Assembly (NCBI RefSeq): GCF_037902255.1
Contig: NZ_CP147990.1
Location: 3,210,001-3,242,000, forward strand
Reading direction: 5' to 3'
DNA length: 32,000 bases
DNA from: Candidatus Electrothrix sp. GW3-4
GTDB taxonomy: Bacteria; Desulfobacterota; Desulfobulbia; Desulfobulbales; Desulfobulbaceae
Under the pieces are notes generated by a model, which worked only from the letters and a program-made list of their open reading frames with translations, was not told where the DNA came from and ran no database searches. The position numbers and the translations under genes were made by a program. Each line of letters begins with the position of its first letter. Positions within the stretch are counted from its first letter, which is position 1. Positions 299 through 20,840 of the stretch are shown here, piece after piece.

Positions 299-1891
299 TT
301 ACGCAGCAAGAGGCAGAGGAGGTACATCCAGCCCCTGACGCCGAGCCGTGATAACCTCGGCGAGATATTTCCACGGACAGGCGTTGCGCTTCCTACACGT
401 ATCAATCACGCTCGCAAGTATGGCGAACACATGACTACCTTGACCATTACGGGTACCGTGGCTTAATTTGCGCGCAATAACCCAATGACGTAACGCTTGC
501 TCCGCCTCATTATTGGTCAGGGGCCACGTCGGATTCGACAACACATGAAAAATCGTGTCCCAGTCGTTGAGAAATTCTCTGGCCAGCTCGCGTGTTTTTT
601 TATGGTCTGAATCGCGATATCTCATGCAGCACGCCTTAAATTCGGCCAGAAATTCTCTGTATATTGGCAAAAGATCCGTGGGTGGTCCCTCGCGAGCCTT
701 GTAAATTACATCCATCAACTCGGTGAGCACCGCATGGGCCTCGGTGCCGAATGTGCGGGGATCATCGCTCAGGCTCTGTTTCAAGCCTTTTGTCTTGCGC
801 AGTAAATGCGCCCAGCAGCGGAGCCTGTTGAGGAACTTACGATAGGCCTTGTAGCCGTCGCTCATCAGCACCCCCTTAAAGGTTTGGCCGAGCACATAAT
901 CAAGTACTTTTTGGCTGCGAAGGCCAATGATGTAAAAGGTGACTTTCAGCGAGGTAAAGACCCATAACCATCGTTTTTCGGCCCACTCCTTCCAGGATGT
1001 CTCATCCACGAACAGGATCAGTGATTCACGCACCTCCTCAAGAAACTCATCGCTAAGGGGAGAAGCGGCGCGGCCAGCTTCATGGATACATTGATTGATC
1101 GTGCCGATGCCCAAATCCAATCGCAGCCAATCTTGCAAAAATTCCCGGATGCGGCGGCGGGAAAGGCGCATGCGCTTGGAGAGGCACACGATCAGAGCGG
1201 TCAATTTTGGGCCGACCATGTGCCATTGGCTTATTTCAACCCCCCAGTCTTCGTTTTTTTCGAGACGATGGGGCATAAGCCGATTGACATGACCACAGCC
1301 GCCGCACGTCGTGTCTCCGTAGATATGCTTGGTGTTGATCACCTCTATTCCCGGACCGGTGGCATCGCCCACCTCAATATCAACGACATAATGACCGGTG
1401 CGAGCGGTGAAGTCGCATGTTTCGTCCAGCTCAAGGTTACAAGCCGAGCAGGTGCCTGCTTTGTGAATGATGGTGTCGTGTACGGGAAGTTTTTGCGTTC
1501 GACCATGCCCGGTGGCACCGGGTTGCTTGCCGGGTTTGTTGCCCTTGGGGCGATCATCAATATTTTTGGGGGAATCCTGCTGGTCGGACTTGTCCGCATC
1601 TTCATCATGCTCGGCGGACTCCTCGTCAGAATCGTCGAGTTCTATGTGCGTGGCTTCGACTTGCTCTTCATCCGGTTCCTCCTCGTCGGCTTGAGCGTCG
1701 GCATCAAACCGGGCCCAGGGGAAATTTGAGCTGGGAGGCATGGAGCTGTTTTCGGAATTTTGACCCATCCGTTCATGAAGTTCTTTGAGGTCATCAAGAA
1801 AGAGCAGGCACAGCTCCTTTGCACTCTTACCGGGCAAGGTGTCAATAAACTGCTTATCTATTTTTAGCAACTCTTCTCTGGACAGGTGCAT
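299..1891 (-). CDS. IS66-family transposase
   Basis: 530 aa. The N-terminal helical region ends in ...NSENSSMPPSS. It has Cys pairs (CSACN...CGGCGH), an FVDETSW motif and LRCWAHLLRK, all typical of IS66 TnpC-type transposases. Confidence 0.92.
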   Translation of the reverse strand: MHLSREELLKIDKQFIDTLPGKSAKELCLLFLDDLKELHERMGQNSENSSMPPSSNFPWARFDADAQADEEEPDEEQVEATHIELDDSDEESAEHDEDADKSDQQDSPKNIDDRPKGNKPGKQPGATGHGRTQKLPVHDTIIHKAGTCSACNLELDETCDFTARTGHYVVDIEVGDATGPGIEVINTKHIYGDTTCGGCGHVNRLMPHRLEKNEDWGVEISQWHMVGPKLTALIVCLSKRMRLSRRRIREFLQDWLRLDLGIGTINQCIHEAGRAASPLSDEFLEEVRESLILFVDETSWKEWAEKRWLWVFTSLKVTFYIIGLRSQKVLDYVLGQTFKGVLMSDGYKAYRKFLNRLRCWAHLLRKTKGLKQSLSDDPRTFGTEAHAVLTELMDVIYKAREGPPTDLLPIYREFLAEFKACCMRYRDSDHKKTRELAREFLNDWDTIFHVLSNPTWPLTNNEAEQALRHWVIARKLSHGTRNGQGSHVFAILASVIDTCRKRNACPWKYLAEVITARRQGLDVPPLPLAA

Positions 1892-4412: not shown

Positions 4413-4940
4413 TCAGGAGTTCTTGCCGTTCCGAGAGGAAAAGGCAGATAGTATGGTCGGACCCTCGTTATGCACTGTTACCACCTCGGCCTTACGGAGA
4501 ACCCGCTTGCCCGCAATATCCAGGTAACCTTTTTTCTCCACCGAAATAATCTCTTCGTTTGCCCGAACAGGATCCTTTTCAGTGGCAATGATCCGACACT
4601 GCTCCATCCTTGCCTTGTTGTCTGGAAATTCCAGCGGCTCAACATGGCGGGATCGGAGCAGACGCAGGAGTTTTCGCTGAATAGCGCGGGTGCTCTGGAC
4701 AAAACGCTGCCCGGTCTTATCCAGGAACCCCTCCTTGCCCTGAATATTCTTTTCCAGGTTATCAAAGGCATCCAGCACCTCAAAGAGCCCCAGCAGCAAC
4801 TCCTGCTCCCGTTGTTCAGCTACGTCCTTCTGCTCCTGCTTGATTCGCTTCAGCTCAGCGATCTCCCGCTGAAACCCGATCAGCTTTTCCCGCAAGAGCG
4901 CATCCGGGGCCTTTTCTCCTCCCTGTTCCGCCATGGTCAC
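4413..4940 (-). CDS. GrpE-like nucleotide exchange factor (paralogous, part of the Hsp70 module)
   Basis: 175 aa. An N-terminal coiled coil is followed by LLLGLFEVLDAFDNLEKN (compare GrpE LLPVLDNLERA) and a C-terminal KKGYLDIAGKRVLRKAEVVTV (compare GrpE GY..RVLRPA.V.V). The GTG start at 4940 overlaps the upstream stop; an alternative ATG lies at 4934. Confidence 0.72.
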   Translation of the reverse strand: MTMAEQGGEKAPDALLREKLIGFQREIAELKRIKQEQKDVAEQREQELLLGLFEVLDAFDNLEKNIQGKEGFLDKTGQRFVQSTRAIQRKLLRLLRSRHVEPLEFPDNKARMEQCRIIATEKDPVRANEEIISVEKKGYLDIAGKRVLRKAEVVTVHNEGPTILSAFSSRNGKNS

Positions 4941-5224
4941 ACCTGGTTATCAAAAATATCCCATCCTTCAAAACGGGTAATAGCTTCTTTTTCCACTCCT
5001 TCCAGCTCCCCCAAGCCCTTTCTTACCTCATTGAGGAGCGGCTCAAGATCAACCGTATGGATAAAATCAAGAAGACGCCTGGTTGCGGGGTTCATCAGCT
5101 GTTTTCTTGCTTCCGCAATATCACGGGCAGAATGCTTGTCTTCCCGCAGGGCCCGGGCCGAGGCCTGGACAATCTCCCGAGATGTTGCCTGGGGGCTGAT
5201 ATTCAGGATCCTGTAGGGATTCAT
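4937..5224 (-). CDS. Small J-domain-like protein lacking the HPD tripeptide
   Basis: 95 aa. NPYRILNISPQATSREIVQASARALRE resembles J-domain helices I-II, but the expected HPD position reads DKHSARD. ATGA start/stop overlaps occur at both ends (5221-5224 and 4937-4940). Confidence 0.6.
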   Translation of the reverse strand: MNPYRILNISPQATSREIVQASARALREDKHSARDIAEARKQLMNPATRRLLDFIHTVDLEPLLNEVRKGLGELEGVEKEAITRFEGWDIFDNQV

Positions 5225-6654
5225 AGGATCCCCAACCGTTCTTCGAACTCGTCCAGGAGCAAGGCAATGTCCTCGATTATTCGGTGTTCTGGATCGACCT
5301 CAACAGCACCCTCCAAGAGCTGCCGGACCATTAAACAGGCTGATTCATCATCAGGATAATCCCCCATTTCGATCTGTTCAAGGACCTGAGCAACAAAGAT
5401 AAAAAACTGATCCACAACCCCCTGGTACGCACTCTGTTGCGCAATCCGGGAGGCCTTGCCCAGCTTGCCAGCACTCATGGTCTGGTGCAGGGCATGGATC
5501 TCTGCATCCATTTGGGCATCATCAAGGGTCATCCGGGCAAACGCATCACCAGGATTCAGACAGACCGCCTTTTTCATTGAGGTCAGCAAAACCTTACTTT
5601 CAATGGCCCCCTCATTATGAAGCAACACTGCCTGATGAGTCAGCACGGAACAGAACGCCCTTTTCACCGACGGGGGAGAAGAATTCCTGTGTAATTCACT
5701 CAAAACATGCACAGAGACTGCCAGCCAATCCGGGTCCAGGTACCTGTCTTCCCGATCCAGGGCGACAAGCAGGCCTCGTTCAAGCATGGAAGAGTGCAGA
5801 GGCAGGGGCAGGAGATCGATGAGCATTTTCTCTGCCTCCTCATAACGGCCCTGTTGCAACGAGTGCAAGCCACATGCCATCTTCACCTGAGCAAGGCCAT
5901 AAGCAAAAAATGGGTCACCGTTGTTTTCCTCGTCTTTTTTCTCCAGAGAAGCAAACTGTTCTTTTGCTGCGTCGTATTGCTCCATTCGAATCAGCAGAAG
6001 AGCAGGACCAGCGGCAGAATACAACGCACCGGCAGCAAGAAAATCTTCCTGGCCTGGAAAGACGTCCTGATGACCTTGCACCAACCTGAAGATTTGCTCG
6101 GCAATACCAGCCTGCCAGGCCAGGGCCGGGGTATACAGGGGGACCTCCTCTTTATCCTTTCCTGCGGCGGAAAGGGTCTTGAGCAGGGCAAAATCCTCCT
6201 CCCAATGCCGGATGAACGGTGCACCGTTCTCCCCTTGCTGCTCACTATATTTCCTGACCAGCTTCTCGCCAGCTGCAAAAATCTCCAGGCGATACGACTC
6301 CGCCCCCTCCTGTTTTCCCGGCAAAGAATAAAACAGAGCCGGATGAAAGAGAAAAGAAAGCCAACAATCGATGAAATGGTTGACCTCAACAGGTTCTGCT
6401 CGCCTGCCCTCTTCCTTGAGCACCAAATAAGAGGCCTTGGCGTGCAGCTCCAAGACAACAGGATGCAAGAGGTCTGGCCCCGAACTGAGTGTCCTCATCT
6501 CCCGGACTCGTCCCGCCTGCCAACATCGGGCCAAAGAAAGAGATCGACAATGCGATTGATAAGAGGCTGCAAGGGAATCCGAGGCCTCATTTTCTTCTGA
6601 AAACAACGATGCGTTGTCTTTTTTTTCTCCTACCATCCTGCCTAACCTACTCAC
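5221..6654 (-). CDS. Hypothetical all-helical protein with TPR-like segments (Hsp70 module)
   Basis: 477 aa ORF with no catalytic motif I recognise. One TPR-like stretch is AYGLAQVKMACGLHSLQQGRYEEAEKML. The tracked start at 6654 is GTG and lies inside a hairpin, so ATG at 6636 (MVGEKK...) is the more likely start. Confidence 0.6.
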   Translation of the reverse strand: MSRLGRMVGEKKDNASLFSEENEASDSLAASYQSHCRSLSLARCWQAGRVREMRTLSSGPDLLHPVVLELHAKASYLVLKEEGRRAEPVEVNHFIDCWLSFLFHPALFYSLPGKQEGAESYRLEIFAAGEKLVRKYSEQQGENGAPFIRHWEEDFALLKTLSAAGKDKEEVPLYTPALAWQAGIAEQIFRLVQGHQDVFPGQEDFLAAGALYSAAGPALLLIRMEQYDAAKEQFASLEKKDEENNGDPFFAYGLAQVKMACGLHSLQQGRYEEAEKMLIDLLPLPLHSSMLERGLLVALDREDRYLDPDWLAVSVHVLSELHRNSSPPSVKRAFCSVLTHQAVLLHNEGAIESKVLLTSMKKAVCLNPGDAFARMTLDDAQMDAEIHALHQTMSAGKLGKASRIAQQSAYQGVVDQFFIFVAQVLEQIEMGDYPDDESACLMVRQLLEGAVEVDPEHRIIEDIALLLDEFEERLGIL

Positions 6655-6674
6655 AGGCCAGCAATGTGGCCTGT
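6653..6674 (-). promoter_or_regulatory. Intercistronic stem-loop (8 bp perfect stem, 6 nt loop)
   Basis: acaggcca-gcaatg-tggcctgt lies between the stop of the Zn-ribbon/LysM gene (6705) and the start of the 477 aa gene. No U-tract follows on the transcribed minus strand, so it is not a canonical terminator. Confidence 0.3.
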
Positions 6675-6704
6675 TCTCTCTCTTCCTTTTTGCCTTTTCT
6701 GACG

Positions 6705-7766
6705 TCAGTGCAAGATAACCCGAACCGTTGCACCGGGTTGAATATCGGGCGTTTGCTCGTAGAATACCCTTTCAGATGATCCTGGTGCAGCAAAGCGCTC
6801 CTCTATGGTTTGTTGCGTTTCTCCGCCCCACACCGTATGCTTCCACAACACCAGACCATCTCGCCATTCTATCCGGCGGGTATAGATATCCGTCAACACG
6901 GTGCGATCATTAAACAGACGCAGGCTCTCTTCGTCATGGATATCACTGATAACAAGCCCTGGATTCTGTTCCATGATCACGGGATAATACTTGCCGTTAC
7001 CGTAAAAATGCTCGGCAATGTCCCACAAGGTATCGGTTTCCTTTATCAGATATAAAAAAGTTTTTTCCGACCATTGTTCTTCAAACAACACATCAGACAT
7101 AAGCTCGACCGATGGTTCGTCAGTGTTGCTCACAGTTTCGGTTTCCTCTGCCAGTACAACCTCTGCATCCTCGGGCACTGGCTTTTCCGAAGCATTCTCC
7201 CTCACCTCAAACGCTTCTGTTCCTCTTTTGTTCCCCGGTTCCCCGGTCGTTAAACTGGCAATCCGGAACTCGCCAGTTTGCTCAACCTGCTGACCTTCCT
7301 TTGAAGCAGAAGCACCATGTCCTTCCGCCATGTCCTTGTCCTTAGCGCTCGCCTCGAGATCCTCCTCATAGATAAGCGGATCATCCTCTGCAAAAGTCTC
7401 CTCTTCTTCGCCCCCCACCTTCTCAGACTCAGGCAGAACACAGAGCACCTGCTTTGCCTGCTCGCTGTTCTGCTCTGCTACCTGAAGATCCGTCTGCAAG
7501 GCAACCATACGTTGCTTTAAGGCTTGCACCCGTCCCTTTGCCTTCAAAGAAAAATAGAAAAAACTCGTCCCAATAAGGACCAGGAGCAAGAAAAGGAGGA
7601 GGACAGCGCGCCGGGTGCTGGAGCGATCCTCCTTTCCTGCCTCTTTCGCAGCCAGCGTCTCTAAGACCTGAAAACAGGTCAGATCAGCATCGCATTGCGG
7701 GCAGTTTTTACTGTCAGGCGGTATACCCGGTCGTTCACAGACAGGACAGGTTAACTGGTCAGACAT
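6705..7766 (-). CDS. Zn-ribbon / single-TM / coiled-coil / acidic linker / tandem LysM-like protein
   Basis: 353 aa. The N-terminus has CPVC-x11-CPQC and a TM segment AVLLLFLLLVLIGTSFFYFSL. The C-terminus has YLIKETDTLWDIAEHFYGNGKYYPVIMEQNP (a YgaU-type LysM signature) and a second, degenerate LysM-like unit. Its ATG overlaps the Hsp70 stop (TAATG at 7764-7768). Confidence 0.7.
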   Translation of the reverse strand: MSDQLTCPVCERPGIPPDSKNCPQCDADLTCFQVLETLAAKEAGKEDRSSTRRAVLLLFLLLVLIGTSFFYFSLKAKGRVQALKQRMVALQTDLQVAEQNSEQAKQVLCVLPESEKVGGEEEETFAEDDPLIYEEDLEASAKDKDMAEGHGASASKEGQQVEQTGEFRIASLTTGEPGNKRGTEAFEVRENASEKPVPEDAEVVLAEETETVSNTDEPSVELMSDVLFEEQWSEKTFLYLIKETDTLWDIAEHFYGNGKYYPVIMEQNPGLVISDIHDEESLRLFNDRTVLTDIYTRRIEWRDGLVLWKHTVWGGETQQTIEERFAAPGSSERVFYEQTPDIQPGATVRVILH

Positions 7767-10111
7767 TATTTCCGAATATCCCTATGGATTTTCTGGGTGC
7801 TCATGGCATAATTCTCCAGGACCTCATCCACCTCTGGCAGGACAGCATGCAGCTTGTCTGCCACAGAATCATCCTGTTTTTCTGCGGCCTCCAGGACCTC
7901 TGCAATGACCCGCAAAAACTTTTTTGCCTTGCCCGGATCTGTTTTAAAACAGATCTCACTGGCGTTTTCTATCTGCATCAGGGTATTGACCTGGGCCAGC
8001 CGCTTATCATCCAGGGCAGCGGCCAGGGCTGCGGATGCCCGCATCGTCTCCTCGTATGAGCCATTCTCGTCAACCTGACGCAGTTTTTCTATCCTACTCC
8101 GAAGCAGTTCCTGCATCCTGGGGTCAATCAGCACGCCGTAATCATCCAGCATACTTTCGGCGTAGTAGAGTTGGGTCAGGGGAGCCTCTTCATTGGCCGC
8201 AATCTTGATGGCCTTATGGATCTGGTTGCGGGCCTGTTCATATCGTGTTTCATCCACAGACTCGTCTTGCGGATCAACCACCCCATGAATAGATCCGATG
8301 AGGGATCGTGCCCGATTCTGCAAATCGATAATCGTATAGGTAGAATACTGTGCTTTATCAGCATCAGCAATTGCTTGTTCAAGCGCAAGAAAAAGTTTTT
8401 CATCGGCCTTGCCCCGGGACAGGGTTCGTGAGATAGCCACCTCAGGATGATTCAGGAGAGCTGCATTGACGGAGACGAGATTGTTTTCATCAATATTCAG
8501 GGTGATTTCTATCCGAGCAGGCATCTGTTTTTTTCGCGATGTCTTCTGCGATGTTTCCAGCTCCTCCTCTTTTCCTCTCTCTTTCTCCTGATCAATGCCC
8601 AGCCACAGATCCCCGATACCCTGCTCTCTCCTGTTAACCACATTATAAAACTTCATATGGACCAGTTCCTGCTCAGGATCAACCAGCTGAAAGACCTCTG
8701 TGCTGGAGCAGGGCAGCGGAGTATTTTTCTCCACCATCAAAAAACGCTGATCATTTTCCAGCTTGATATAATAATCATGGGCAGCAGCATGGACGATCTC
8801 CACTACCCCGTGTTCCACCGTATGCCCTTCCAGATCAAAGCCACAATGGGAACAGGCAGAGGCATTCTGGGCCGTATTCCTGGTACATTGAGGACATTCA
8901 ACGGTATCTGCAAGACGATGACTGAGAATAGCGGCCCCTTCCGCAATAGCGAGCATAGGGCGCTCATGGAGAAGAACTTTCCCCTGACCAAACTCCTCCT
9001 GCAAGACCTGAATAACGCAGGGGATACGGGAGCTCCCCCCGACGAGCAGTACATTATCGATCAGATCTTCGGTAAAATGAACATCAACAATCACGCCCCG
9101 AACCAGCTTCAGCATGGATCGCAACAAAGGAGTCATCATGCTCTCAAAGCGGATACGAGGCAGTTCCACCTCCACATCAAAGGGATCCCCATCTTTATCC
9201 TGCAAAACACCAAGAATTTCAATACAGGTCTCCTCCTGATCGCTCAGGGCTATCTTGGCCTTTTCCACAGCGGTCTTCAGCTCAGCAAGAAACTTATTCC
9301 GCCGGGCAGGCTTCTGCTGCTCAATCAGGGCACGGATATCCTCAACATCCTCTTCCCGTGCGGTCTCTTGCAGGACATAGTCTATCAGCAGCTGGTCAAT
9401 ATCCTCGCCACCCAGCCACATATCACCGCCCTTGCCCATCTCGATGATGCGGCCACCGCTGATAGTCAGGATGGAAAGATCCAGGGTTCCGCCACCAAAG
9501 TCAAAGACCAGCACGGTTCGCCCATCATCACCGGAGATCTTATCCACCCCAAAGGAGATCGCGGCGGCAGTGGGCTCGGGGAGAAGACGACGCACCTTGA
9601 GTCCTGCTAAGGCAGCTGCCGTCCTGGTCGCGTGTTTCTGCTTATCATTAAAATAGGCAGGTACTGTGATCACAGCAGCGTCCACCTCATCACCTAATGC
9701 GGCCTCGGCGTCTGCCTTCAGCTTGGCCAGGATCTTGGCTGAAATCTCCTCTGGGGTAAATTCCCTGCCATTAATCTGGAGAGCAAGACTATTGGCCGAG
9801 CCCCGGGAGTGGGTGGCAAGCTGATAATGCAGGCTCTGCTTCGTGATCAACTCCTGCACCTCTTGCTCATGAAAATTCCGACCGATGAGCCGCTTCACTG
9901 CGGTTATGGTATGCTCTGGTTCCTGGCGGATCCACTCCAGGGCATCACGGCCCACAATAAACTCCGGCCTGCGCATCAGGCGTTTCTTCACCATCACGCA
10001 GGAGGGGGTGATGTATTCGCCTTCTGCGTTCTTCAAGACCTCTGTGCTCACCTTTTTGACGGCAACAACAGAGTTGGTGGTTCCGAGATCTATACCTATT
10101 GATTTTTTCAT
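7766..10111 (-). CDS. Non-canonical Hsp70-family ATPase with an inserted zinc ribbon and a long helical C-terminal region
   Basis: GIDLGTTNSVVAV, DFGGGTLDLSIL and VLLVGGSSRIPCV are actin-fold Hsp70 NBD motifs. CPQC-x10-CSHC follows the NBD. I place the start at ATG 10111 (MKKSIGIDLG), because the tracked start at 10198 would overlap sdhB. Confidence 0.85.
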   Translation of the reverse strand: MKKSIGIDLGTTNSVVAVKKVSTEVLKNAEGEYITPSCVMVKKRLMRRPEFIVGRDALEWIRQEPEHTITAVKRLIGRNFHEQEVQELITKQSLHYQLATHSRGSANSLALQINGREFTPEEISAKILAKLKADAEAALGDEVDAAVITVPAYFNDKQKHATRTAAALAGLKVRRLLPEPTAAAISFGVDKISGDDGRTVLVFDFGGGTLDLSILTISGGRIIEMGKGGDMWLGGEDIDQLLIDYVLQETAREEDVEDIRALIEQQKPARRNKFLAELKTAVEKAKIALSDQEETCIEILGVLQDKDGDPFDVEVELPRIRFESMMTPLLRSMLKLVRGVIVDVHFTEDLIDNVLLVGGSSRIPCVIQVLQEEFGQGKVLLHERPMLAIAEGAAILSHRLADTVECPQCTRNTAQNASACSHCGFDLEGHTVEHGVVEIVHAAAHDYYIKLENDQRFLMVEKNTPLPCSSTEVFQLVDPEQELVHMKFYNVVNRREQGIGDLWLGIDQEKERGKEEELETSQKTSRKKQMPARIEITLNIDENNLVSVNAALLNHPEVAISRTLSRGKADEKLFLALEQAIADADKAQYSTYTIIDLQNRARSLIGSIHGVVDPQDESVDETRYEQARNQIHKAIKIAANEEAPLTQLYYAESMLDDYGVLIDPRMQELLRSRIEKLRQVDENGSYEETMRASAALAAALDDKRLAQVNTLMQIENASEICFKTDPGKAKKFLRVIAEVLEAAEKQDDSVADKLHAVLPEVDEVLENYAMSTQKIHRDIRK

Positions 10112-10172: not shown

Positions 10173-10934
10173 TTACTCGCCAAACAAGGTCGCTGCAAGG
10201 TACTCTCGGTTCATTCGGGCAATATGGCGGATAGAAATCCCCTTAGGACAGACCTGCTCGCATTCCCGATGATTACTGCACGAACCAAAGCCCTCCTTGT
10301 CCATAGCCGCCACCATGGACAAGGCACGCTGCTTCCGTTCCGGCTGCCCTTGGGGCATAAGGGCCAGCTGAGAAATCTTGGCAGAGGTAAAAAGCATGGC
10401 TGCTGCATTAGGGCAGGCGGCAACGCAGGCACCGCAGCCGATACAGGCCGCTGCATCCATGGCCTGCTCAGCCTGGGGCTGACTCACCGGCACGGCATTG
10501 GCATCCGGGGCAGAACCGGTATTCATAGAGACAAAACCACCGGCCTGGATGATACGATCAAAGGCGGAGCGATCCACCATCAGGTCTTTCACCAAGGGAA
10601 AGGCCCTGGTGCGGAAGGGCTCAATACAGATCACCTGCCCGTCCTGAAAATGGCGCATGTGAAGCTGACAGAGCGTGGTTCCCTGCTCCGGCCCATGCGC
10701 GATGCCATCAACCACGGCTCCGCACATGCCGCAGATCCCTTCCCGGCAGTCATGGTCAAAGGCCACGGGCTCTTTTCCTTCTAGGGTCAGCTGCTCGTTC
10801 AGGACGTCCAGCATCTCCAGAAAGGACATATCCGTGCTGATCTCTTGCAGCGTGTAGGTTTCCAGGCTGCCTTCCGCTGTTTCGCTCGCCTGTCGCCAGA
10901 CCTTGACTGTAATGGATATCTTCTTTGCTGACAT
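10173..10934 (-). CDS. sdhB: Succinate dehydrogenase / fumarate reductase iron-sulfur subunit
   Basis: Cys clusters CREGICGMCG, CIGCGACVAACP and CSNHRECEQVCP match the 2Fe-2S, 4Fe-4S and 3Fe-4S ligands. ATG at 10934 is preferred; the tracked start at 10955 is TTG. Confidence 0.9.
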   Translation of the reverse strand: MSAKKISITVKVWRQASETAEGSLETYTLQEISTDMSFLEMLDVLNEQLTLEGKEPVAFDHDCREGICGMCGAVVDGIAHGPEQGTTLCQLHMRHFQDGQVICIEPFRTRAFPLVKDLMVDRSAFDRIIQAGGFVSMNTGSAPDANAVPVSQPQAEQAMDAAACIGCGACVAACPNAAAMLFTSAKISQLALMPQGQPERKQRALSMVAAMDKEGFGSCSNHRECEQVCPKGISIRHIARMNREYLAATLFGE

Positions 10935-11096
10935 TGCTTTTTTTTTTGTCTGCAATTATTCTTGGTCGTCCTGCTGTAGCTGCTCAATCATCTCTGGAGC
11001 AAGCCCGATAAACAATGGCAAGATTCGGAATGATGATCACAGGTTGCTCAAACTCTATTTATGACTCGCTGTGCAGATGGGATAGCCTACAATCGA

Positions 11097-11513
11097 TTAA
11101 GAAAAAATATCCTCAACCGCAACCTCAAGATCAATCACCGGGTCACTAAACCGCCCGCTTGAACAAGATAGGGGATGCTGAATATCCTGAAAAAGAACAA
11201 TGGTCTTGGTCGGCGGGATCACAAGCCAGCAGGATTTAACCCCAGCTTGCAAATACACTTCAAACTTCTCAGTGACTTCATTGACTGCCTGTTTCGGAGA
11301 CAGTATCTCGACCAACAGAAGGGGAGGTTTGTCCGCTTTAATTTTATCATGAAGAAAATCAATCTGTTCCTTTTTATACAAGGCAATATCAGGAATATAA
11401 TCAGTTCCATTGATGTCCAATGTCATTTCAATGTGCAGATTATATTTGTCGTCTTGATCCAAAACCTTGGCAATCCTATACGCAAGATAGGAATGATTAT
11501 ACGATGGGGTCAT
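11097..11513 (-). CDS. Uma2 (DUF820) family putative endonuclease, short form
   Basis: 138 aa. YIPDIALY ... PPLLLVEILSPKQ ... VKSCWLVIP follows the PD-(D/E)xK-like Uma2 pattern. A GAGAGGA ribosome-binding site lies 16 nt after the sdhA stop. The gene is visibly more AT-rich than the flanking sdh genes. Confidence 0.65.
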   Translation of the reverse strand: MTPSYNHSYLAYRIAKVLDQDDKYNLHIEMTLDINGTDYIPDIALYKKEQIDFLHDKIKADKPPLLLVEILSPKQAVNEVTEKFEVYLQAGVKSCWLVIPPTKTIVLFQDIQHPLSCSSGRFSDPVIDLEVAVEDIFS

Positions 11514-11529: not shown

Positions 11530-13458
11530 TTATTTATAACTCCGCTGCGACGGCGTAACCGCCTCGAACTGCAACGGCTCCTGATGGAGAAAAGGCGGCT
11601 GCCCGGCCCCTCTATGCTCCCAAACCGTCACATGCGAATACTGCGCATCATCCCGCTTGGCCTCATGCTCCTCAGTCTGACTTTCCTCCCGCAGATGACA
11701 ACCGCAGGACTCTTTCCGCTCCAGGGCATCCATAACCATGACCTCAGCAAACTCCAGGAAATCCGCCACCCGTCCAGCGCGTTCCAGAGACTGGTTCAAC
11801 TCCTGTCCGGTCCCAGGCACATAAACATTGCTGTAAAATTCTTCGCGAATCGCCGGAATCTCAGCAAGAGCCTTGTTGAGCCCCTCTTCGTTCCGGGACA
11901 TCCCGCAATACTCCCAAAGCAGGGCACCGAGCTTGCGGTGATAATAATCCACCGGCTGAGTGCCAGATTTCTTCCAGTCCCGATGACGCAATAGCCGGGC
12001 AACCCGCGCCGTCACCTCCTCCTTTGTCTCGCTAAAAGCCACATCCTCCGCTGCCGGACGATCAGAGCCAGCCTTAGCCAGGTAATTCCCCAAGGTCACA
12101 GGCAGGATAAAATACCCGTCTGCCAAGCCCTGCATAAGGGCACTGGCCCCGAGCCGGTTGGCGCCGTGGTCGGAAAAATTGGCCTCACCAATGACGAATA
12201 AGCCGTCTAACGAGGATTGGAGCTGATAATCTACCCAAAGGCCACCCATGCTATAATGCACTGCCGGGTAGATCATCATCGGTTCCTTAGCCGGATCAGA
12301 TGCAGTAATGCGCTCGTACATCTGAAAGAGATTACCGTATTTCTTCAAGATGGTAGCCACACCATCCCGCTCAATGGCCTCAGCAAAATTCAGATAGACC
12401 GCCTGCCCGGTCTCGCCCACGCCCTGCCCTTGGTCGCAGACCTCCTTGGCATTACGCGAGGCCACATCCCGGGGCACCAGGTTACCAAAGGCCGGATATC
12501 TGCGTTCCAGATAATAATCGCGCTCTGCTTCTGGAATATCCGCCGGGCTACGACGGTCATCCCTATTTTTCGGCACCCAGACCCGCCCATCATTACGCAG
12601 ACTCTCGCTCATTAGGGTCAGCTTGGACTGATAATCACCATGCACAGGAATACAGGTCGGGTGAATCTGAACAAAGCAAGGATTGGCAAAACCAGCTCCC
12701 CGCCGGTGCGCCCGCCAGGCCGCCGTGACATTGCTGGCCATAGCATTGGTGGACAGGTAAAAGGCATTGCCGTAGCCACCCGTGGCCAAGACCACCGCAT
12801 TGGCCGAATACCGTTCCAGTTCACCGGTAAGCAGATTACGGACAATAATCCCCCGTGCCTGCCCATCAACGACAACCAGGTCCATCATCTCTCGTCGAGG
12901 ATAGATGGTGACCTTACCCGCAGCCACCTGCCGCATCAGGGCAGAATAGGCTCCGAGCAAGAGCTGCTGGCCGGTCTGACCACGGGCATAAAAGGTACGA
13001 GAGACCTGGGCTCCACCAAAGGAACGATTAGCCAGCGTGCCACCGTATTCCCTGGCAAAGGGTACGCCCTGGGCCGCACAATGATCAATGATGGCGTTGG
13101 AAATCTGGGCAAGACGATAGACATTGGCCTCGCGGGAACGAAAATCGCCGCCCTTGATGGTATCATAAAAAAGGCGGAAGACTGAATCGCTGTCGTTTTG
13201 GTAATTCTTGGCCGCGTTGATTCCGCCCTGGGCTGCAATGGAATGGGCGCGGCGGGGGCTGTCCTGAATACAGAACGACTTGACCTTATAGCCAAGTTCT
13301 CCCAAAGAGGCCGCTGCTGAGGCCCCGGCCAGGCCGGTACCCACGACAATGATTTCATATTTACGCCGGTTTGCCGGGCTGACCAATTTATTGCTGAAAC
13401 GGCAGGCGTCCCATTTTTCGTGCAAAGAACCAGGTGGGATATGGGGATGAAGATGCAT
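11530..13458 (-). CDS. sdhA: Succinate dehydrogenase / fumarate reductase flavoprotein subunit
   Basis: 642 aa. [12 protein letters not shown] is a FAD-binding Rossmann motif, [11 protein letters not shown] contains the His used for covalent FAD attachment, and the family C-terminal domain is present. Confidence 0.92.
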
Positions 13459-14275: not shown

Positions 14276-17200
14276 TTATCCTTTTTGCAGTTCTTTTCTC
14301 AGTTGGTTGAATTCCTCCATCATGGCCTCGCGAAGCTGAGAGAAGCCCTCCTTAACCTGATGAACCGCATCCTGACTACTGACACTAGGGGAAGAAACAG
14401 GTGCTGTAGGGGCCGCATGGTGAGCCATATCCTCCTCGTTGCGAGCTATGACCCAATGGAAAAACTCCTGCTGCCAAGCGGTGTAATGATGCACCAAGGC
14501 CGTGAGTTCAAACGGGTCATCAGCAGCAAGTTCAAGTCCAGCTGCCAGTTCTTGGACCACGACTTGATCTTCAGTCTCCAGCTCAGGCTTTTGCCCGATA
14601 AGAGCGGTTGCCGATTCCAGGAGATGGAGAATCACTGTCTGCTGTGGAGTTCCTCCGGCCCTTTTTTTGGCAGCAACGGCCAGCTCATGAACTTGCTGTA
14701 CATTATCAAGAGATGGATTCAATGCGATAGCGGCTGCCGCAGTCGAAAAAGACGCCGCATCAAAAAGCAGTTCAGCATCTTCAGCATCATCCGCTTCTAA
14801 GCCGTCTGTATCGTCCTCCTCTCCAAGATGTTCACCTTCTTCGTCGCTCTCTAAGAAAGAAACCGACTCCGTCTTCTGGGCTTTCTCAAATTCTCCAGCA
14901 ACGACATCTTCAGTCGACAAGAGCTCGCTCGCTCTCTGCTCCTCAGTGGTCTGTTGTTGCTCAAGCTCTTGATCAAGTAAAAGCTCACCGTCGTCCTCAT
15001 CCGGGACTGCTTCGGCGCTCGCCTCTGTGTCCGGGGTAATTGCAAAATGGCTTCCTAAAGCCACCTCAGCTTCCTGCTCATCAGTTTCCAACAGGTCCGC
15101 ATCAAGGTTCAGATCAACATCTTCATCTTCCGACCCTTCGCTGCTCAGGTCGCCTTCTTGGCCCTCTTCATCATCAAGTGTCAGAACAAGGTCTTCAGAG
15201 TCTTCCTCGACATCCTCTAAAGAGTCTGTCAAGAGAGAAGCATTTTCCTCATCAAGGGACAAGGCGAATTCGTCCTCGACATCACCCTCTTCGGCTACTT
15301 CAGCCTGCTCGGGCTCGCCAGCTGCCTCATCTTCCTCGGCAAAACCGAAGAAGCTTTCCTCTTCAGCTGCTTCTGAGGTCGACTCTGAAGCAACAGCACT
15401 GTCATCAGCATCAGCATCGCCAAAGGAAAAATCTGATAATTCGTCTTCACCTGAATCGTCATCATCAAGGGACAAGGCGAACTCATCTTCGACATCACTC
15501 TCGGCGGCTACTTCAGCCTGCTCGGGCTCGCCAGCTGCCTCATCTTCCTCGGCAAAACCGAAGAAGCTTTCCTCTTCAGCTGCTTCTGAGGTCGACTCTG
15601 AAGCAACAGCACTGTCATCAGCATCAGCATCGCCAAAGGAAAAATCCGATAATTCGTCTTCACCTGAATCGTCATCATCAAGGGACAAGGCGAACTCATC
15701 TTCGACATCACTCTCGGCGGCTACTTCAGCCTGCTCGGGCTCGCCAGCTGCCTCATCTTCCTCGGCAAAACCGAAGAAGCTTTCCTCTTCAGCTGCTTCT
15801 GAGGTCGACTCTGAAGCAACAGCACTGTCATCAGCATCAGCATCGCCAAAGGAAAAATCCGATAATTCGTCTTCACCTGAATCGTCATCATCAAGGGACA
15901 AGGCGAACTCATCTTCGACATCACTCTCGGCGGCTACTTCAGCCTGCTCGGGCTCGCCAGCTGCCTCATCTTCCTCGGCAAAACCGAAGAAGCTTTCCTC
16001 TTCAGCTGCTTCTGAGGTCGACTCTGAAGCAACAGCACTGTCATCAGCATCAGCATCGCCAAAGGAAAAATCCGATAATTCGTCTTCACCTGAATCGTCA
16101 TCATCAAGGGATAACGCGAATTCGTCCTCGACATCACCCTCTTCGGCTACTTCAGCCTGCTCGGGCTCGCCAGCTGCCTCATCTTCCTCGGCAAAACCGA
16201 AGAAGCTCTCCTCTTCAGCTGCTTCTGAGGTCGACTCTGAAGCAACAGCACTGTCATCAGCATCAGCATCGCCAAAGGAAAAATCCGATAATTCGTCTTC
16301 ACCTGAATCGTCATCATCAAGGGATAACGCGAATTCGTCCTCGACATCACCCTCTTCGGCTACTTCAGCCTGCTCGGGCTCGCCAGCTGCCTCATCTTCC
16401 TCGGCAAAACCGAAGAAGCTCTCCTCTTCAGCTGCTTCTGAGGTCGACTCTGAAGCAACAGCACTGTCATCAGCATCAGCATCGCCAAAGGAAAAATCCG
16501 ATAATTCGTCTTCACCTGAATCGTCATCATCAAGGGACAAGGCGAACTCATCTTCGACATCACTCTCGGCGGCTACTTCAGCCTGCTCGGGCTCGCCAGC
16601 TGCCTCATCTTCCTCGGCAAAACCGAAGAAGCTCTCCTCTTCAGCTGCTTCTGAGGTCGATTCTGAAGCAACAGCACTGTCATCAGCATCAGCATCGCCA
16701 AAGGAAAAATCCGATAATTCGTCTTCACCTGAATCGTCATCATCAAGGGACAAGGCGAACTCATCTTCGACATCACTCTCGGCGGCTACTTCAGCCTGCT
16801 CGGGCTCGCCAGCTGCCTCATCTTCCTCGGCAAAACCGAAGAAGCTTTCCTCTTCAGCTGCTTCTGAGGTCGATTCTGAAGCAACAGCACTGTCATCAGC
16901 ATCAGCATCGCCAAAGGAAAAATCCGATAATTCGTCTTCACCTGAATCGTCATCATCAAGGGACAAGGCGAACTCATCTTCGACATCACTCTCGGCGGCT
17001 ACTTCAGCCTGCTCGGGCTCGCCAGCTGCCTCATCTTCCTCGGCAAAACCGAAGAAGCTTTCCTCTTCAGCTGCTTCTGAGGTCGATTCTGAAGCAACAG
17101 CACTGTCATCAGCATCAGCATCGCCAAAGGAAAAATCTGATAATTCGTCTTCACCTGAATCGTCATCATCAAGGGACAAGGCAAATTCGTCATCAATCTC

Positions 17201-20095
17201 ATCATCTAACGGCAGAACAAACTCGTCGCTAAGCTCGACAGCTTCTTCTGACTTTTCGATAGAGGTTGAAGGTTCATCATCAAGCAATAGGGCAAACTCG
17301 TCTCCAAGCTCAACCTCTTCTTCTGCCTTATCGTCCGAACCTGCTGTACTCTCCTCTTCCAGCTCAAAGAAACCATCTAGGGAGTCAGCTTGTTCACCCG
17401 ACTCAGAGGAAATTTCGATCTCTTCCTCACTCTCGAAAGAGAAATCAGCAGACTCATCATCACCTGATTCGTCATCGTCTTCAAACGACAAGACGAAATC
17501 ATCATCAAGTTCGGTATCCTCTCCGGGTGTTTCATCGTCAAGTGATAAGGTAAATTCCTCATCAAGCCCGATATCATCGGCTGTCTCGTCCAAGGAATCT
17601 GGGTCTATCGATACAACCTCCTCAGCAGAATCCGAGAAGACATCGGTGAACTCCTCTTCCTCGCTGTCAGAGGAGAACGCGAGGACTTCATCTGCGTTTT
17701 CTTCTTTATCATCAAGTGAGACAACGAATTCGTCTTCTAACGCTGGAATATCTTCTGCTTCGCCTAAACGTGGTTTCTCAAATTCAGGAGTACCCTCTGT
17801 CTCATCGTCCAGATCGAAGATAGCATCCAGTCCTTCAATTTCTTCTTCTGAATCGGAGGAAAACGCATCGCCTTGATCAATAGTTGCGCTATCCTCTTCT
17901 GTTTCTTCTGTATCAAGAGAAAATCCAGCAATATCTCCATCAAAATCATCTTCGCCACCAAACAACAACTCAGAGCTCTCTTCCTCTGTCCCTATGCTTA
18001 TCTCATCTTGACCTTCATTGAGTGCATCTGATTCAATAAGAGTTTCAGTGGTGCCCCCCTCTTCGCCAACAACAACTTGGTCTTCAGTGGAGTCTTCCTG
18101 GGTATCCTTATCCAACTCAAAAAAGAAATTCAGCTTTTCATCAAGCTCAGCCGCCTTTTCGTCATCAATACCAGAGGCCATCTCATCTTCGTTAAAGCCG
18201 CCCTCTTCATCAGCATCTGCCAGGGCAACAGCTATCTCTTCGCTCTGCTGCCCGTCGTCCATATCGTCCAGGGAAATATCAAGCTCATCAACGTTGACAG
18301 CGGGCGTGTCATCGTCAGCTTCGGTTTCCTGCTCATCCAACAGAGCCCCAACCTCATTTTCGTCACTGTCAAAATCAAAAAACGAATCGTAATCCTCTTC
18401 CCCCTCTAACAGGGCTTCCTCTTCTCCATCAGATCCATCAAAATCTGCTGCGAGCATCTCCTTTTTCCACGACTCAGCACGCGTCTTTTCCTCTTCTTGC
18501 GTGTCCTCATCTTCAACCACATCATCGGAAAAGTCAAAAAACGAATCAAGCTCCACCTCTGATTCACCCAGCTCGCTATCTCCTTTTTCCCCCTCGCCCT
18601 TCAGCGATTCATCAGCAACACTCTTACTCTCTTCTGAGGCAGCCGTCTTTTCTTCTTTGGGTTCTGTTACTTCGTTGGGGGTATCATCAAATTCAAAAAA
18701 AGAATCCAGTTTTTCATCAAGTTCAGCAGTTTTTTCTTCGTCTATTCCGGCAGATACAAGCTCTTCATTAAAGCCGCCATTCTCATCGGCATCGGTCAAG
18801 GCAGGAAGAATGGCCTCTTCTTCTGCAACGTTATCGTCCAGGACGAATTCCTGATCTCCTGCCTCTGTCTCATCTGCAAAGAGGTCTTCATCAAGCCCAC
18901 CCTCTTCCTCGTCGAAGTCAAACTCTTCGACAATGCTTTCCTCATCATCAAGAAAAAATTCACCCGCACTTTCCCCTTCAGCGGAAAAATCAGCACTTGC
19001 ATCAAAATCTTCTGCAAACAAATCCAGGTCTTCATCATCGTCGGCCACAGGAGAATCAAACTCTGCATCGTCTTCAGAAACATCATTTTCAGCCTCTTGC
19101 CCGGGTGTAGCTATTTCAGCAGTTTCTGTGAGTTCCTCTTCATCCCGCTCTTTTTCTTCTTCTCCAGCGCTTTGTTCTGCTGCTCGCTCTGCAGCCGACT
19201 TGGCGATAATAGCCTTCAGACTGTTAAGACTGCCGATCTGCTCAAGCAAAACCCGCTTCCGTTGTTCGTCAGTCAGGTTTGTATCCTGAATCAGCAGCTT
19301 TAACGCGTCATAAAACGCATGCAGAATGGTAAACGAGTCGGGATGGGCGTTTGTCTTTTCCTCTCGTATATATGCCCCTAAGGCCTGCAAGCCCTGCACA
19401 AGAATTTGTGCATCACGATTATCAGTGAGATACTCTCGCAACTCTGTGGCTTCTGCATGAAACTTTTCCAACCCCTCTTGCGTGACCTCCCATTCCAAGC
19501 CAAGAATGGTCGCCTCCATGCTCGTCAGCGGGTCGTCAGCTTCCTCATGTAGCACAGGTGCAGCGCTCTCAAGGTCTCCTGAAATTCTCTCTTCGGGTAG
19601 TGGGGTAGCTTCGGTACGATCTTCGATATAATCCTCGACCTGTTCCCTGTCACCTGTTGTACCGATCTGGTATTGCAGAACTTTAAATTTACGGACATCG
19701 GCCTTGAGCATAGCAGCTATTAACTCACTGCCGAGGTCTGTCGAAGATATTATTTTTTCATAATTATAAAAGAGGGTAAGAAGAAGTTTAATGGCGTTAG
19801 GATGGGCATAGGCGCCCTCTTTCTGAAGATACTTACCGATATTATCCATCCCCTGAAGATAGATCTGCGCTACCTTATCTCCATCCCACAGGGAACGCAG
19901 ATGAGACAACTCCTCGGTCAGCTCTGACAGAGTATCCTCGGTGATATCCCAATCCAGTGAGAGAACTATCGACTTCAGACGAAGAAGGGGCGACTCCTCA
20001 TCGTCGGTAAATTCAAACAAATCAACTTCATCATTATCAAACGACTCATCTGCAAATTGTGTGAGGTCTTCAAATTCGTCTATTGCTGGGGGCAT
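14276..20095 (-). CDS. Giant hyper-acidic repeat protein (1,939 aa) of unknown function
   Basis: An uninterrupted 5.8 kb ORF, co-directional with mglBA. Non-repetitive helical domains occupy both termini, and the core is extremely D/E-rich. The ATG at 20095 is 67 nt after the mglA stop, and the TAA at 14276-14278 is 9 nt before the sdhC ATG. Confidence 0.85.
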   Translation of the reverse strand: MPPAIDEFEDLTQFADESFDNDEVDLFEFTDDEESPLLRLKSIVLSLDWDITEDTLSELTEELSHLRSLWDGDKVAQIYLQGMDNIGKYLQKEGAYAHPNAIKLLLTLFYNYEKIISSTDLGSELIAAMLKADVRKFKVLQYQIGTTGDREQVEDYIEDRTEATPLPEERISGDLESAAPVLHEEADDPLTSMEATILGLEWEVTQEGLEKFHAEATELREYLTDNRDAQILVQGLQALGAYIREEKTNAHPDSFTILHAFYDALKLLIQDTNLTDEQRKRVLLEQIGSLNSLKAIIAKSAAERAAEQSAGEEEKERDEEELTETAEIATPGQEAENDVSEDDAEFDSPVADDDEDLDLFAEDFDASADFSAEGESAGEFFLDDEESIVEEFDFDEEEGGLDEDLFADETEAGDQEFVLDDNVAEEEAILPALTDADENGGFNEELVSAGIDEEKTAELDEKLDSFFEFDDTPNEVTEPKEEKTAASEESKSVADESLKGEGEKGDSELGESEVELDSFFDFSDDVVEDEDTQEEEKTRAESWKKEMLAADFDGSDGEEEALLEGEEDYDSFFDFDSDENEVGALLDEQETEADDDTPAVNVDELDISLDDMDDGQQSEEIAVALADADEEGGFNEDEMASGIDDEKAAELDEKLNFFFELDKDTQEDSTEDQVVVGEEGGTTETLIESDALNEGQDEISIGTEEESSELLFGGEDDFDGDIAGFSLDTEETEEDSATIDQGDAFSSDSEEEIEGLDAIFDLDDETEGTPEFEKPRLGEAEDIPALEDEFVVSLDDKEENADEVLAFSSDSEEEEFTDVFSDSAEEVVSIDPDSLDETADDIGLDEEFTLSLDDETPGEDTELDDDFVLSFEDDDESGDDESADFSFESEEEIEISSESGEQADSLDGFFELEEESTAGSDDKAEEEVELGDEFALLLDDEPSTSIEKSEEAVELSDEFVLPLDDEIDDEFALSLDDDDSGEDELSDFSFGDADADDSAVASESTSEAAEEESFFGFAEEDEAAGEPEQAEVAAESDVEDEFALSLDDDDSGEDELSDFSFGDADADDSAVASESTSEAAEEESFFGFAEEDEAAGEPEQAEVAAESDVEDEFALSLDDDDSGEDELSDFSFGDADADDSAVASESTSEAAEEESFFGFAEEDEAAGEPEQAEVAAESDVEDEFALSLDDDDSGEDELSDFSFGDADADDSAVASESTSEAAEEESFFGFAEEDEAAGEPEQAEVAEEGDVEDEFALSLDDDDSGEDELSDFSFGDADADDSAVASESTSEAAEEESFFGFAEEDEAAGEPEQAEVAEEGDVEDEFALSLDDDDSGEDELSDFSFGDADADDSAVASESTSEAAEEESFFGFAEEDEAAGEPEQAEVAAESDVEDEFALSLDDDDSGEDELSDFSFGDADADDSAVASESTSEAAEEESFFGFAEEDEAAGEPEQAEVAAESDVEDEFALSLDDDDSGEDELSDFSFGDADADDSAVASESTSEAAEEESFFGFAEEDEAAGEPEQAEVAAESDVEDEFALSLDDDDSGEDELSDFSFGDADADDSAVASESTSEAAEEESFFGFAEEDEAAGEPEQAEVAEEGDVEDEFALSLDEENASLLTDSLEDVEEDSEDLVLTLDDEEGQEGDLSSEGSEDEDVDLNLDADLLETDEQEAEVALGSHFAITPDTEASAEAVPDEDDGELLLDQELEQQQTTEEQRASELLSTEDVVAGEFEKAQKTESVSFLESDEEGEHLGEEDDTDGLEADDAEDAELLFDAASFSTAAAAIALNPSLDNVQQVHELAVAAKKRAGGTPQQTVILHLLESATALIGQKPELETEDQVVVQELAAGLELAADDPFELTALVHHYTAWQQEFFHWVIARNEEDMAHHAAPTAPVSSPSVSSQDAVHQVKEGFSQLREAMMEEFNQLRKELQKG
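15250..17194 (-). repeat. Nine tandem 213 bp (71 aa) near-identical repeats plus a partial tenth, inside the giant ORF
   Basis: The period is shown by nine alternate-frame ORFs spaced exactly 213 bp apart (15295, 15508 ... 16999) and by direct reading. The unit is DEFALSLDDDDSGEDELSDFSFGDADADDSAVASESTSEAAEEESFFGFAEEDEAAGEPEQAEVAAESDVE. Confidence 0.95.
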
Positions 20096-20768: not shown

Positions 20769-20840
20769 TGCTTTTCTCCTGCTGTGTAGGGATTAATGCT
20801 ATTGAAGAGACGAGACGACTCCCTGAAGGCATGATAAATC

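Follow-up and report, generated by a model that had tools for sequence, protein, structure and literature searches.

The question raised by this locus is what a second, atypical Hsp70 with its own set of partner genes does in a cable bacterium that also has an ordinary DnaK. The stretch of DNA analysed here, called the window, is 32,000 nucleotides long and comes from Candidatus Electrothrix sp. GW3-4 (assembly GCF_037902255.1, contig NZ_CP147990.1, positions 3,210,001 to 3,242,000); coordinates are those of the window unless a locus number (L) precedes them. Five genes at 4413-10111 of its minus strand, named g1 to g5 in the order of transcription, make up a conserved and self-contained Hsp70 operon. 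The answer that we favour, and regard as moderately probable, is that this cassette encodes a dedicated Hsp70 machine, tethered to the cell wall and working on the cytoplasmic side of the inner membrane, which would act on a specific client alongside the housekeeping DnaK. The five genes are as follows.

7766-10111, minus strand: g1, non-canonical Hsp70, 781 amino acids from ATG (MKKSIGIDLG)
6705-7766, minus strand: g2, protein with zinc ribbon, membrane helix, acidic/coiled region and LysM, 353 amino acids
5221-6654, minus strand: g3, all-helical protein, 477 amino acids from GTG 6654 or 471 amino acids from ATG 6636
4937-5224, minus strand: g4, J-like protein, 95 amino acids
4413-4940, minus strand: g5, GrpE-family nucleotide-exchange factor, 175 amino acids

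All five reading frames were confirmed at the coordinates given by the original prediction, and so were the overlaps by which it had joined the genes: the junctions were read directly as TAATG at 7768-7764 (g1-g2), ATGA at 5224-5221 (g3-g4) and GTGA at 4940-4937 (g4-g5). The parts that it had named for the operon, and their order, were found as well, and the junctions are tight throughout the family (median gap of 0 nt for g1-g2 and of -4 nt for g4-g5). The open frame of g1 extends to a TTG at 10198; the homologues start at ATG instead, and since all 57 aligned ones begin there, opening with M-x-K-S-I-G-I-D-L-G-T-T-N-S, the ATG at 10111 is taken as the true start, with the stop of frdB 61 nt upstream of it. 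What Electrothrix relatives conserve around the spacer between g2 and g3 is the ATG at 6636 with AGGCAGG ahead of it, so that this ATG is the likelier start of g3 (471 amino acids, 68-nt gap). One further element lies in this spacer.

6653-6674, minus strand: stem-loop with a perfect 8-bp stem and a 6-nt loop, overlapping the GTG start of g3

The stem-loop had been pointed out in the original prediction and is indeed present, but it is not conserved in Electrothrix relatives, being deleted in one and degenerate in others. The 71-nt region that holds it folds no better than 17 of 200 shuffled sequences (z = -1.5). It is probably incidental and was rejected as a regulatory element.

The distribution of the cassette was surveyed by scanning one genome per GTDB species (185,579 representatives) with two peptide patterns. 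At least 87 confirmed species matches were obtained, and 80 of them were kept; as detection depends on the two patterns, the true number may be higher. Gene order was counted in the loci having at least 4.3 kb downstream of g1 (n=44); g2, g3, g4 and g5 follow g1 in the same order and on the same strand in 41 of them, and all shorter contigs (35/35) are consistent with the five-gene order. The expected conservation of the operon across genomes was thus borne out in several phyla. The three exceptions are Ca. Electronema halotolerans without a GrpE gene, one orphan g1 and one fragmented copy; in the Electronema cassette (L009:14290-18804) an open reading frame (ORF) of 1460 amino acids stands after g4, where the GrpE gene is missing. 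The carriers are mostly Desulfobulbia and Desulfobacteria, for example Desulfonema magnum, Desulfobacter latus and Desulfamplus magnetovallimortis, with more divergent copies in gammaproteobacteria of sulfur and methane metabolism (Thiorhodococcus, Chromatiaceae, Thiotrichales, Methylococcales, Achromatium) and single bins of Elusimicrobia, Spirochaetes, Sandaracinaceae (Myxococcota) and Kiritimatiellia. Across orders g1 remains 54-57% identical.

Some observations on the carriers themselves may be added here. The archaeal, spirochaete, Elusimicrobia and Kiritimatiellia copies (L022, L027, L037, L032, L066, L078) resemble Desulfobacterales copies as closely as the latter resemble one another, which points to horizontal transfer or mis-binning of those copies; L022, a 2.6-kb contig in a Promethearchaeota bin, is most likely mis-binned. 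Large or multicellular organisms recur among the carriers (cable bacteria, Desulfonema, Achromatium, Desulfamplus), an echo of the Bbp actin story (PMC10580974), and many ordinary Desulfobacterales carry the cassette too.

The cassette is not the housekeeping chaperone system, because a canonical DnaK is encoded elsewhere on the chromosome. This DnaK of Electrothrix sp. GW3-4 has 644 amino acids and lies on the same contig (4,642,691 bp) as the cassette. Its family was traced through a canonical dnaK in a Desulfobulbaceae bin (L011:5866-7806, minus strand), which is located about 1 kb upstream of the cassette of that bin and is transcribed divergently from it. The L011 protein scores 1000-1057 bits with the NCBIfam DnaK models (1057 against a cut-off of 648); a search with it found the DnaK of Electrothrix communis, Electrothrix YB6 and Electronema halotolerans, and the cluster of the Electrothrix communis DnaK includes the 644-amino-acid protein of GW3-4. 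The product of g1 stays below the cut-offs of the DnaK equivalogs TIGR02350 (339 bits against 822.55) and NF001413 (346 against 648), and also of the HscA models (277-280 bits against 620-708). The non-housekeeping status assumed in the original prediction is therefore upheld by the separate DnaK on the contig and by these scores.

The central component, g1, is divided into four regions.

8912-10111, minus strand: ATPase (nucleotide-binding) domain, residues 1-400, from the Pfam HSP70 match and aligned catalytic residues
8822-8905, minus strand: Cys4 zinc ribbon, residues 403-430, between the ATPase domain and the linker/substrate domain
8423-8800, minus strand: divergent substrate-binding beta-sandwich, residues 438-563, from the AlphaFold2 fold and a weak Pfam match
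7769-8407, minus strand: C-terminal helical region, residues 569-781, from AlphaFold2 helices

The ATPase domain matches Pfam HSP70 (PF00012) with an E-value of 1.4e-102 over residues 5-400, and residues 1-395 are 39% identical in BLASTP to a manually entered E. coli DnaK sequence. Residues D8, K73, E179, D204, T209 and D211 align to D8, K70, E171, D194, T199 and D201 of DnaK and are invariant in 57 family members; judged by this alignment, the domain carries the complete catalytic Asp/Lys/Glu/Thr set of the Hsp70 superfamily. The cysteines of the zinc ribbon (C406, C409, C420, C423) are invariant in the family, the region has weak matches to Pfam zinc-ribbon models, and AlphaFold2 predicts short strands there; more distant family members have no zinc ribbon. 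The beta-sandwich gives no alignment to DnaK in BLASTP and only a weak match to Pfam HSP70 profile positions 406-574 (E 0.013), and the C-terminal half of g1 found no match by sequence among solved structures. Its residues include a set invariant across the family (among them H445, D446, Y447, P465-P467, G500, D501 and W503). Eight helices from 569 to 770 are predicted for the tail with a per-residue confidence (pLDDT) of about 90, and the extreme C-terminus ends in a conserved I-x-K-D-I-x-K in which I775, D778 and I779 are nearly invariant. The C-terminal 381 amino acids match 109 representative proteins among 1.84 billion, none of which is a canonical DnaK.

The AlphaFold2 model of g1, built on 57 homologues (pLDDT 83), matches full-length DnaK and BiP in Foldseek, with template-modelling (TM) scores of 0.84-0.86; one example is BiP 6zmd_A, with a TM score of 0.86 and a root-mean-square deviation of 3.1 Å over 576 columns. 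Since the model aligns with structures which hold both an ATPase and a substrate domain, it indicates that g1 is a complete two-domain Hsp70 and not a bare ATPase. The substrate domain is real and very divergent, yet almost invariant within the family. The zinc ribbon after the ATPase domain and the long helical tail had been recognised earlier; the beta-sandwich at 438-563 had been overlooked.

The second component, g2, is the predicted membrane anchor and has three recognisable elements.

7647-7766, minus strand: N-terminal zinc ribbon and LxxL tail, residues 1-40, an invariant motif, presumably cytoplasmic
7545-7607, minus strand: single hydrophobic membrane segment, about residues 54-74, AVLLLFLLLVLIGTSFFYFSL, read from the translation
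6939-7052, minus strand: LysM domain, residues 239-276, predicted periplasmic, below the Pfam threshold and supported at family level

The N-terminal tail is the most conserved part of g2. Its motif CPxC-x11-CPQCDxDLxCF is invariant in the family, as are C7, C10, C22, P23, Q24, C25, F32 and L35. The zinc ribbons of g1 and g2 align with each other (hhalign probability 82%, E 1e-5) and have the pattern CPxC-x10/11-CxxC-x-x-D-L in common, so that the alignment indicates homology between them. The homologues of g2 have a hydrophobic stretch at the position equivalent to the membrane segment, and an acidic, variable stretch separates this segment from the LysM domain; in cable bacteria g2 carries a gained acidic insert. 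For the window copy the match to Pfam LysM (PF01476) is at E 0.01 and 16.2 bits against a cut-off of 20.9; residues 225-271 match an NCBIfam LysM model at 1.5e-7. Of 52 family members, 43 match LysM (best E 6e-14), which supports at family level the LysM component proposed at the outset, and the closest solved structure is the LysM region of TsaP.

The exchange factor g5 is the clearest of the partners. It exceeds the Pfam GrpE threshold (PF01025; E 2.1e-10, 40.9 bits against 25.8) over residues 23-155 and profile positions 37-163 of 165, and its homologues are also above this cut-off (38.2 bits), so the earlier GrpE-like assignment stands. With the NCBIfam model of the housekeeping GrpE it scores far below the cut-off (18.5 bits against 137). 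The window copy has 175 amino acids against a family norm of about 151-160.

The assignment of g4 as a J-like protein without the His-Pro-Asp (HPD) motif was made earlier from the letters of the sequence and is now strengthened by profile and fold comparison. The window copy falls below the Pfam DnaJ threshold (PF00226; 18.4 bits against 27.8), and weak DnaJ matches are present in 24 of 53 family members. When the 53 members were aligned by hhalign to a small J-domain reference alignment of manually entered sequences, a probability of 90% and an E-value of 1.6e-6 were obtained, and the sole gap, of about 10 residues, falls at the HPD loop. The g4 profile matched nothing significant among solved structures by sequence. 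In the AlphaFold2 model residues 1-57 have a pLDDT above 90 and form helices at 3-6, 15-28, 33-44 and 46-57; the alignment behind this model is shallow, as the homologue search returned Electrothrix relatives only. The top 50 PDB matches of the model in Foldseek are nearly all J domains, with E-values of 0.045-1 that are modest because only about 60 residues are compared. Residues 1-57 of g4 are a J-domain fold from which the HPD loop has been deleted. HPD is absent from the window copy and from all 56 relatives aligned with it (57 sequences), and the loop between helices II and III is reduced to about 4 residues with the consensus R-K-Y-S. Lacking HPD, g4 is to be called a J-like protein in the sense of Pam16 and not a strict J-domain co-chaperone. 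The basic face of helix II is mostly replaced by alanines, and the C-terminus has a conserved L-x-x-L-x-I/L-F-D motif.

The third gene was described in the original prediction as TPR-like, and for the window copy this is not supported, since the N-terminal TPR module of its relatives is missing here. The family of g3 has about 690 amino acids, and the window copy corresponds to the C-terminal two-thirds, beginning about 200 residues into the family alignment. In phmmer it matches g3 of nearly all loci. Pfam TPR models match 24-25 of 40 family members, always in the N-terminal module, and the family profile matches consensus TPR structures at 1e-15 in the same module; in the window copy the TPR matches are weak (E 0.008-0.45). 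The remaining part of about 470 amino acids has no significant Pfam match. A hidden J domain with HPD was sought in g3 and elsewhere in the cassette, and no conserved HPD was found. A progressive loss of the TPR module is seen in cable-bacterial g3 (the window; L003, L004, L007, L008, L009), where the protein has 471-534 amino acids in Electrothrix, 576 in strain YB6 and 641 in Electronema, compared with about 690 elsewhere.

These parts can be put together into a working scheme. The protein g2 would sit in the inner membrane with its LysM domain on the peptidoglycan in the periplasm and its zinc-ribbon tail in the cytoplasm, an orientation suggested by domain logic, because LysM is a wall-binding domain and the reducing cytoplasm is a suitable place for a Cys4 zinc site. 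The conserved tail would recruit g1, possibly by pairing with the related zinc ribbon of g1. The Hsp70 would then alternate between ATP- and ADP-bound states while acting on a single specific client or partner, such specificity being suggested by the invariance of the binding domain, and g5 would reset the cycle by release of ADP. That the operon has an exchange factor of its own implies that g1 binds ADP tightly, as DnaK does, in contrast to HscA and HscC, which dispense with GrpE (Mayer review, PMC8215388). In this scheme g4 without HPD is more likely a regulator or adaptor joined to g3 than a canonical HPD-dependent trigger of hydrolysis, and g3 may scaffold the complex or present the client.

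Additional support for the pairing of Hsp70 with a zinc-ribbon membrane protein comes from distant Hsp70s which have the C-terminal region of g1 and no zinc ribbon. They occupy reduced cassettes, of which three are given.

L085:765-4875: Hsp70, zinc-ribbon protein, 300-amino-acid protein and GrpE
L087:443-3153: Hsp70 and a protein with zinc ribbon, membrane helix and LysM
L084:8001-11088: g1 relative without zinc ribbon beside a small zinc-ribbon membrane protein

These relatives, having no zinc ribbon in g1 itself, still adjoin a zinc-ribbon membrane protein. In L085 a terminal segment of the 300-amino-acid protein aligns to the g4 profile (hhalign probability 52%), a weak hint that g3 and g4 may be fused there.

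Several points weigh against the dedicated, wall-anchored machine. No component of the cassette bears HPD, which leaves the scheme without an assigned trigger of ATP hydrolysis; this part could be played by DnaJ of the host in trans, by the client, by g2 or by g4 in some non-canonical way. With the basic face of helix II largely alanine, g4 might fail to bind g1 altogether. In the window copy the LysM and J matches fall short of the Pfam thresholds, and basic residues are present on both sides of the g2 membrane helix. The machine tolerates the loss of parts, since the TPR module of g3 is gone in cable bacteria and g5 in one relative. Finally, a patchy distribution and flanks that vary are compatible with an accessory or conflict module too.

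Among the other explanations, a transmembrane signalling or assembly switch deserves mention, in which g2 would sense the condition of the peptidoglycan and g3 or another regulator would be retained or set free by the Hsp70 cycle in response, the "client" being a component of the cassette and not an outside protein. The near-invariant substrate domain and the two zinc ribbons suggest fixed partners, the conserved motifs at the ends of g1 (I-x-K-D-I-x-K) and of g4 (L-x-x-L-x-I-F-D) could serve as ligands within the cassette, and there is precedent for Hsp70s that hold native regulators, sigma-32 being an example (PMC8215388). The cassette has no output domain such as a kinase, DNA-binding domain or cyclase, however, and no regulator is found among conserved neighbours; we consider this switch unlikely. 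Slightly less likely again is a conflict or anti-phage module with a LysM membrane sensor of wall damage, whose response threshold would be set by the nucleoside triphosphate-driven chaperone core. It would account for the patchy distribution across phyla and the want of a conserved flanking gene, the Desulfonema cassette stands near a RAMP (CRISPR-associated) gene, L002 has both a reverse transcriptase and a MazEF toxin-antitoxin pair close to its cassette, and published systems do unite HSP70, GrpE, J domain and TPR (PMC7159879). Against this, none of the five proteins matches PADLOC-DB 2.0 at E <= 0.1, an effector domain, be it a GTPase, nuclease, protease, pore or other, is missing from the cassette, viral contigs yielded no relative, the window copy lies amid housekeeping genes, and the strong conservation of g1 across orders is not that of a diversifying system.

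A regulator of motility or exopolysaccharide acting with MglA/MglB, in the manner of SglK/GrpS or StkA of Myxococcus, was suggested by MglA-like and MglB-like genes in the window at 20163-21239 and by the role of Myxococcus Hsp70 paralogues in social motility (PMC4319316, PMC11019930). A distance of 10 kb separates these genes from the cassette, the linkage recurs in no other lineage, many carriers are not gliding organisms, and SglK (MxDnaK2) is described as a canonical-type DnaK paralogue of another architecture, so we think this explanation very improbable. The analogy to SglK/GrpS, a canonical-type DnaK paralogue with its GrpE (PMC11019930), which had been drawn in the original prediction, is not supported, given the same difference of architecture. 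An odd form of the organism's own DnaK-DnaJ-GrpE might be supposed from the union of Hsp70, J-like protein and GrpE in one operon; with the canonical DnaK of 644 amino acids on the same chromosome, g1 and g5 far below the NCBIfam equivalog cut-offs, no HPD, and the cassette detected in at least 87 of the 185,579 species representatives, the chance of this is practically nil.

The dedicated wall-anchored machine, which we continue to prefer, can be placed among known chaperone systems. In the mitochondrial presequence translocase motor, mtHsp70 works with Tim44, Pam18, the J-like Pam16 without HPD, Mge1 and the zinc-finger protein Hep1/Zim17. The cassette resembles this import motor in its parts, namely a tethered Hsp70, a GrpE-type factor, a J-like protein without HPD and a zinc-finger element, whereas it has no homologue of Tim44 or Pam18, no HPD-bearing J partner and no channel gene, and its zinc ribbons are fused to g1 and g2. 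The comparison is an analogy, with homology seen for the common Hsp70, GrpE and J folds.

With DnaK-DnaJ-GrpE the cassette has in common the ATPase domain, the beta-sandwich substrate domain, the helical lid and the co-encoded GrpE and J-fold partner. It differs in that g1 has a zinc ribbon before the linker, a substrate domain that BLAST does not recognise and a helical tail of about 210 amino acids, that g4 is without the HPD loop, G/F region and client-binding domains of DnaJ, and that two obligatory genes (g2, g3) are added while a true DnaK coexists. In spirit the cassette may be closest to HscC of E. coli with its membrane-anchored J proteins DjlB and DjlC, as both consist of a specialised Hsp70 beside its own partners with one of these in the membrane (PMC8215388). 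By their description the HscC partners are tail-anchored and have functional HPD-bearing J domains, and HscC itself needs no GrpE; in the cassette the predicted anchor is the zinc-ribbon/LysM protein, the J-fold protein is soluble and without HPD, and GrpE is in the operon.

Two other groups of non-housekeeping Hsp70s are known. The GAP1-N2 GTPase systems with HSP70, GrpE and FNIII-DnaJ/TPR proteins (Kaur, Burroughs, Iyer, Aravind 2020, PMC7159879) are likewise accessory operons of HSP70, GrpE and J/TPR partners; the cassette has no TRAFAC GTPase, FNIII repeats or effector (the MglA-like protein is the only GTPase of the window), and it occurs mainly in Desulfobacterota and Gammaproteobacteria, while those systems are from Actinobacteria and Firmicutes. 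SglK (MxDnaK2)/GrpS and StkA of Myxococcus are non-housekeeping Hsp70 paralogues too, and SglK has its own GrpE; according to the literature they are canonical-type or truncated DnaKs without zinc ribbon, LysM anchor, TPR or J-like protein.

Other genes of the window include the following.

299-1891, minus strand: IS66-family transposase
10173-10955: iron-sulfur subunit of the frd/sdh operon (fumarate reductase/succinate dehydrogenase)
11097-11513, minus strand: Uma2-family (putative restriction endonuclease) ORF
11530-13458: flavoprotein subunit of the frd/sdh operon
14276-20095, minus strand: ORF of 1939 amino acids
20163-20768: MglA-like gene
20841-21239: MglB-like Roadblock gene, on the same strand as the MglA-like gene
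21353-21859 and 21826-23148, minus strand: two ORFs of a split adenine deaminase

The cassette is surrounded by housekeeping genes. The mgl-like genes lie 10 kb from it, beyond the frd/sdh operon and the 1939-amino-acid ORF, and in ORF clustering of 72 loci no flanking family was present in more than 5 loci, those being close relatives only. The proximity to mglBA, which had been thought suggestive, thus did not survive this comparison, and a link of the cassette to mglBA, frd/sdh or ddl was rejected as the flanking ORFs of the 72 loci are not conserved. The 1939-amino-acid ORF lies 67 nt downstream of the MglA-like gene, on the same strand as the mgl-like pair, has no Pfam match at E <= 1e-5 and may be a large partner of the polarity GTPase pair. 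The Uma2-family ORF is placed inside the frd/sdh operon, between the iron-sulfur and flavoprotein subunits. The adenine deaminase is split into two ORFs overlapping by 34 nt (Amidohydro_1 and Adenine_deam_C parts), which could be due to a frameshift, a pseudogene or a sequencing error. The IS66-family transposase is 2.5 kb from the end of the cassette, past ddl and a heptosyltransferase gene.

Three types of prokaryotic Hsp70, DnaK, HscA and HscC, were distinguished in a 2021 review (PMC8215388), and a 2026 review refers to other DnaK derivatives as unexplored "dark matter" (PMC13580251). No description of the cassette was found in the literature covered, which is without most subscription journals. 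A bolder idea, speculative and of low probability, is that the cassette represents a fourth prokaryotic class, a wall-anchored and membrane-tethered ratchet on the logic of the import motor with paired zinc ribbons as the docking device; if true, it would spend ATP on pulling, extracting or holding a specific polypeptide at the inner membrane. The cassette alone resolves no long-standing question. It raises the questions of how an Hsp70 that retains GrpE is driven when its only J-fold partner has no HPD, and of what a cytoplasmic chaperone gains from a tether reaching to the peptidoglycan. Culturable carriers are at hand in Desulfobacter latus, Desulfonema magnum, Desulfamplus magnetovallimortis and Thiorhodococcus mannitoliphagus, and the cassette gives one "dark matter" DnaK derivative a defined and conserved set of partners, and with it an experimental system.

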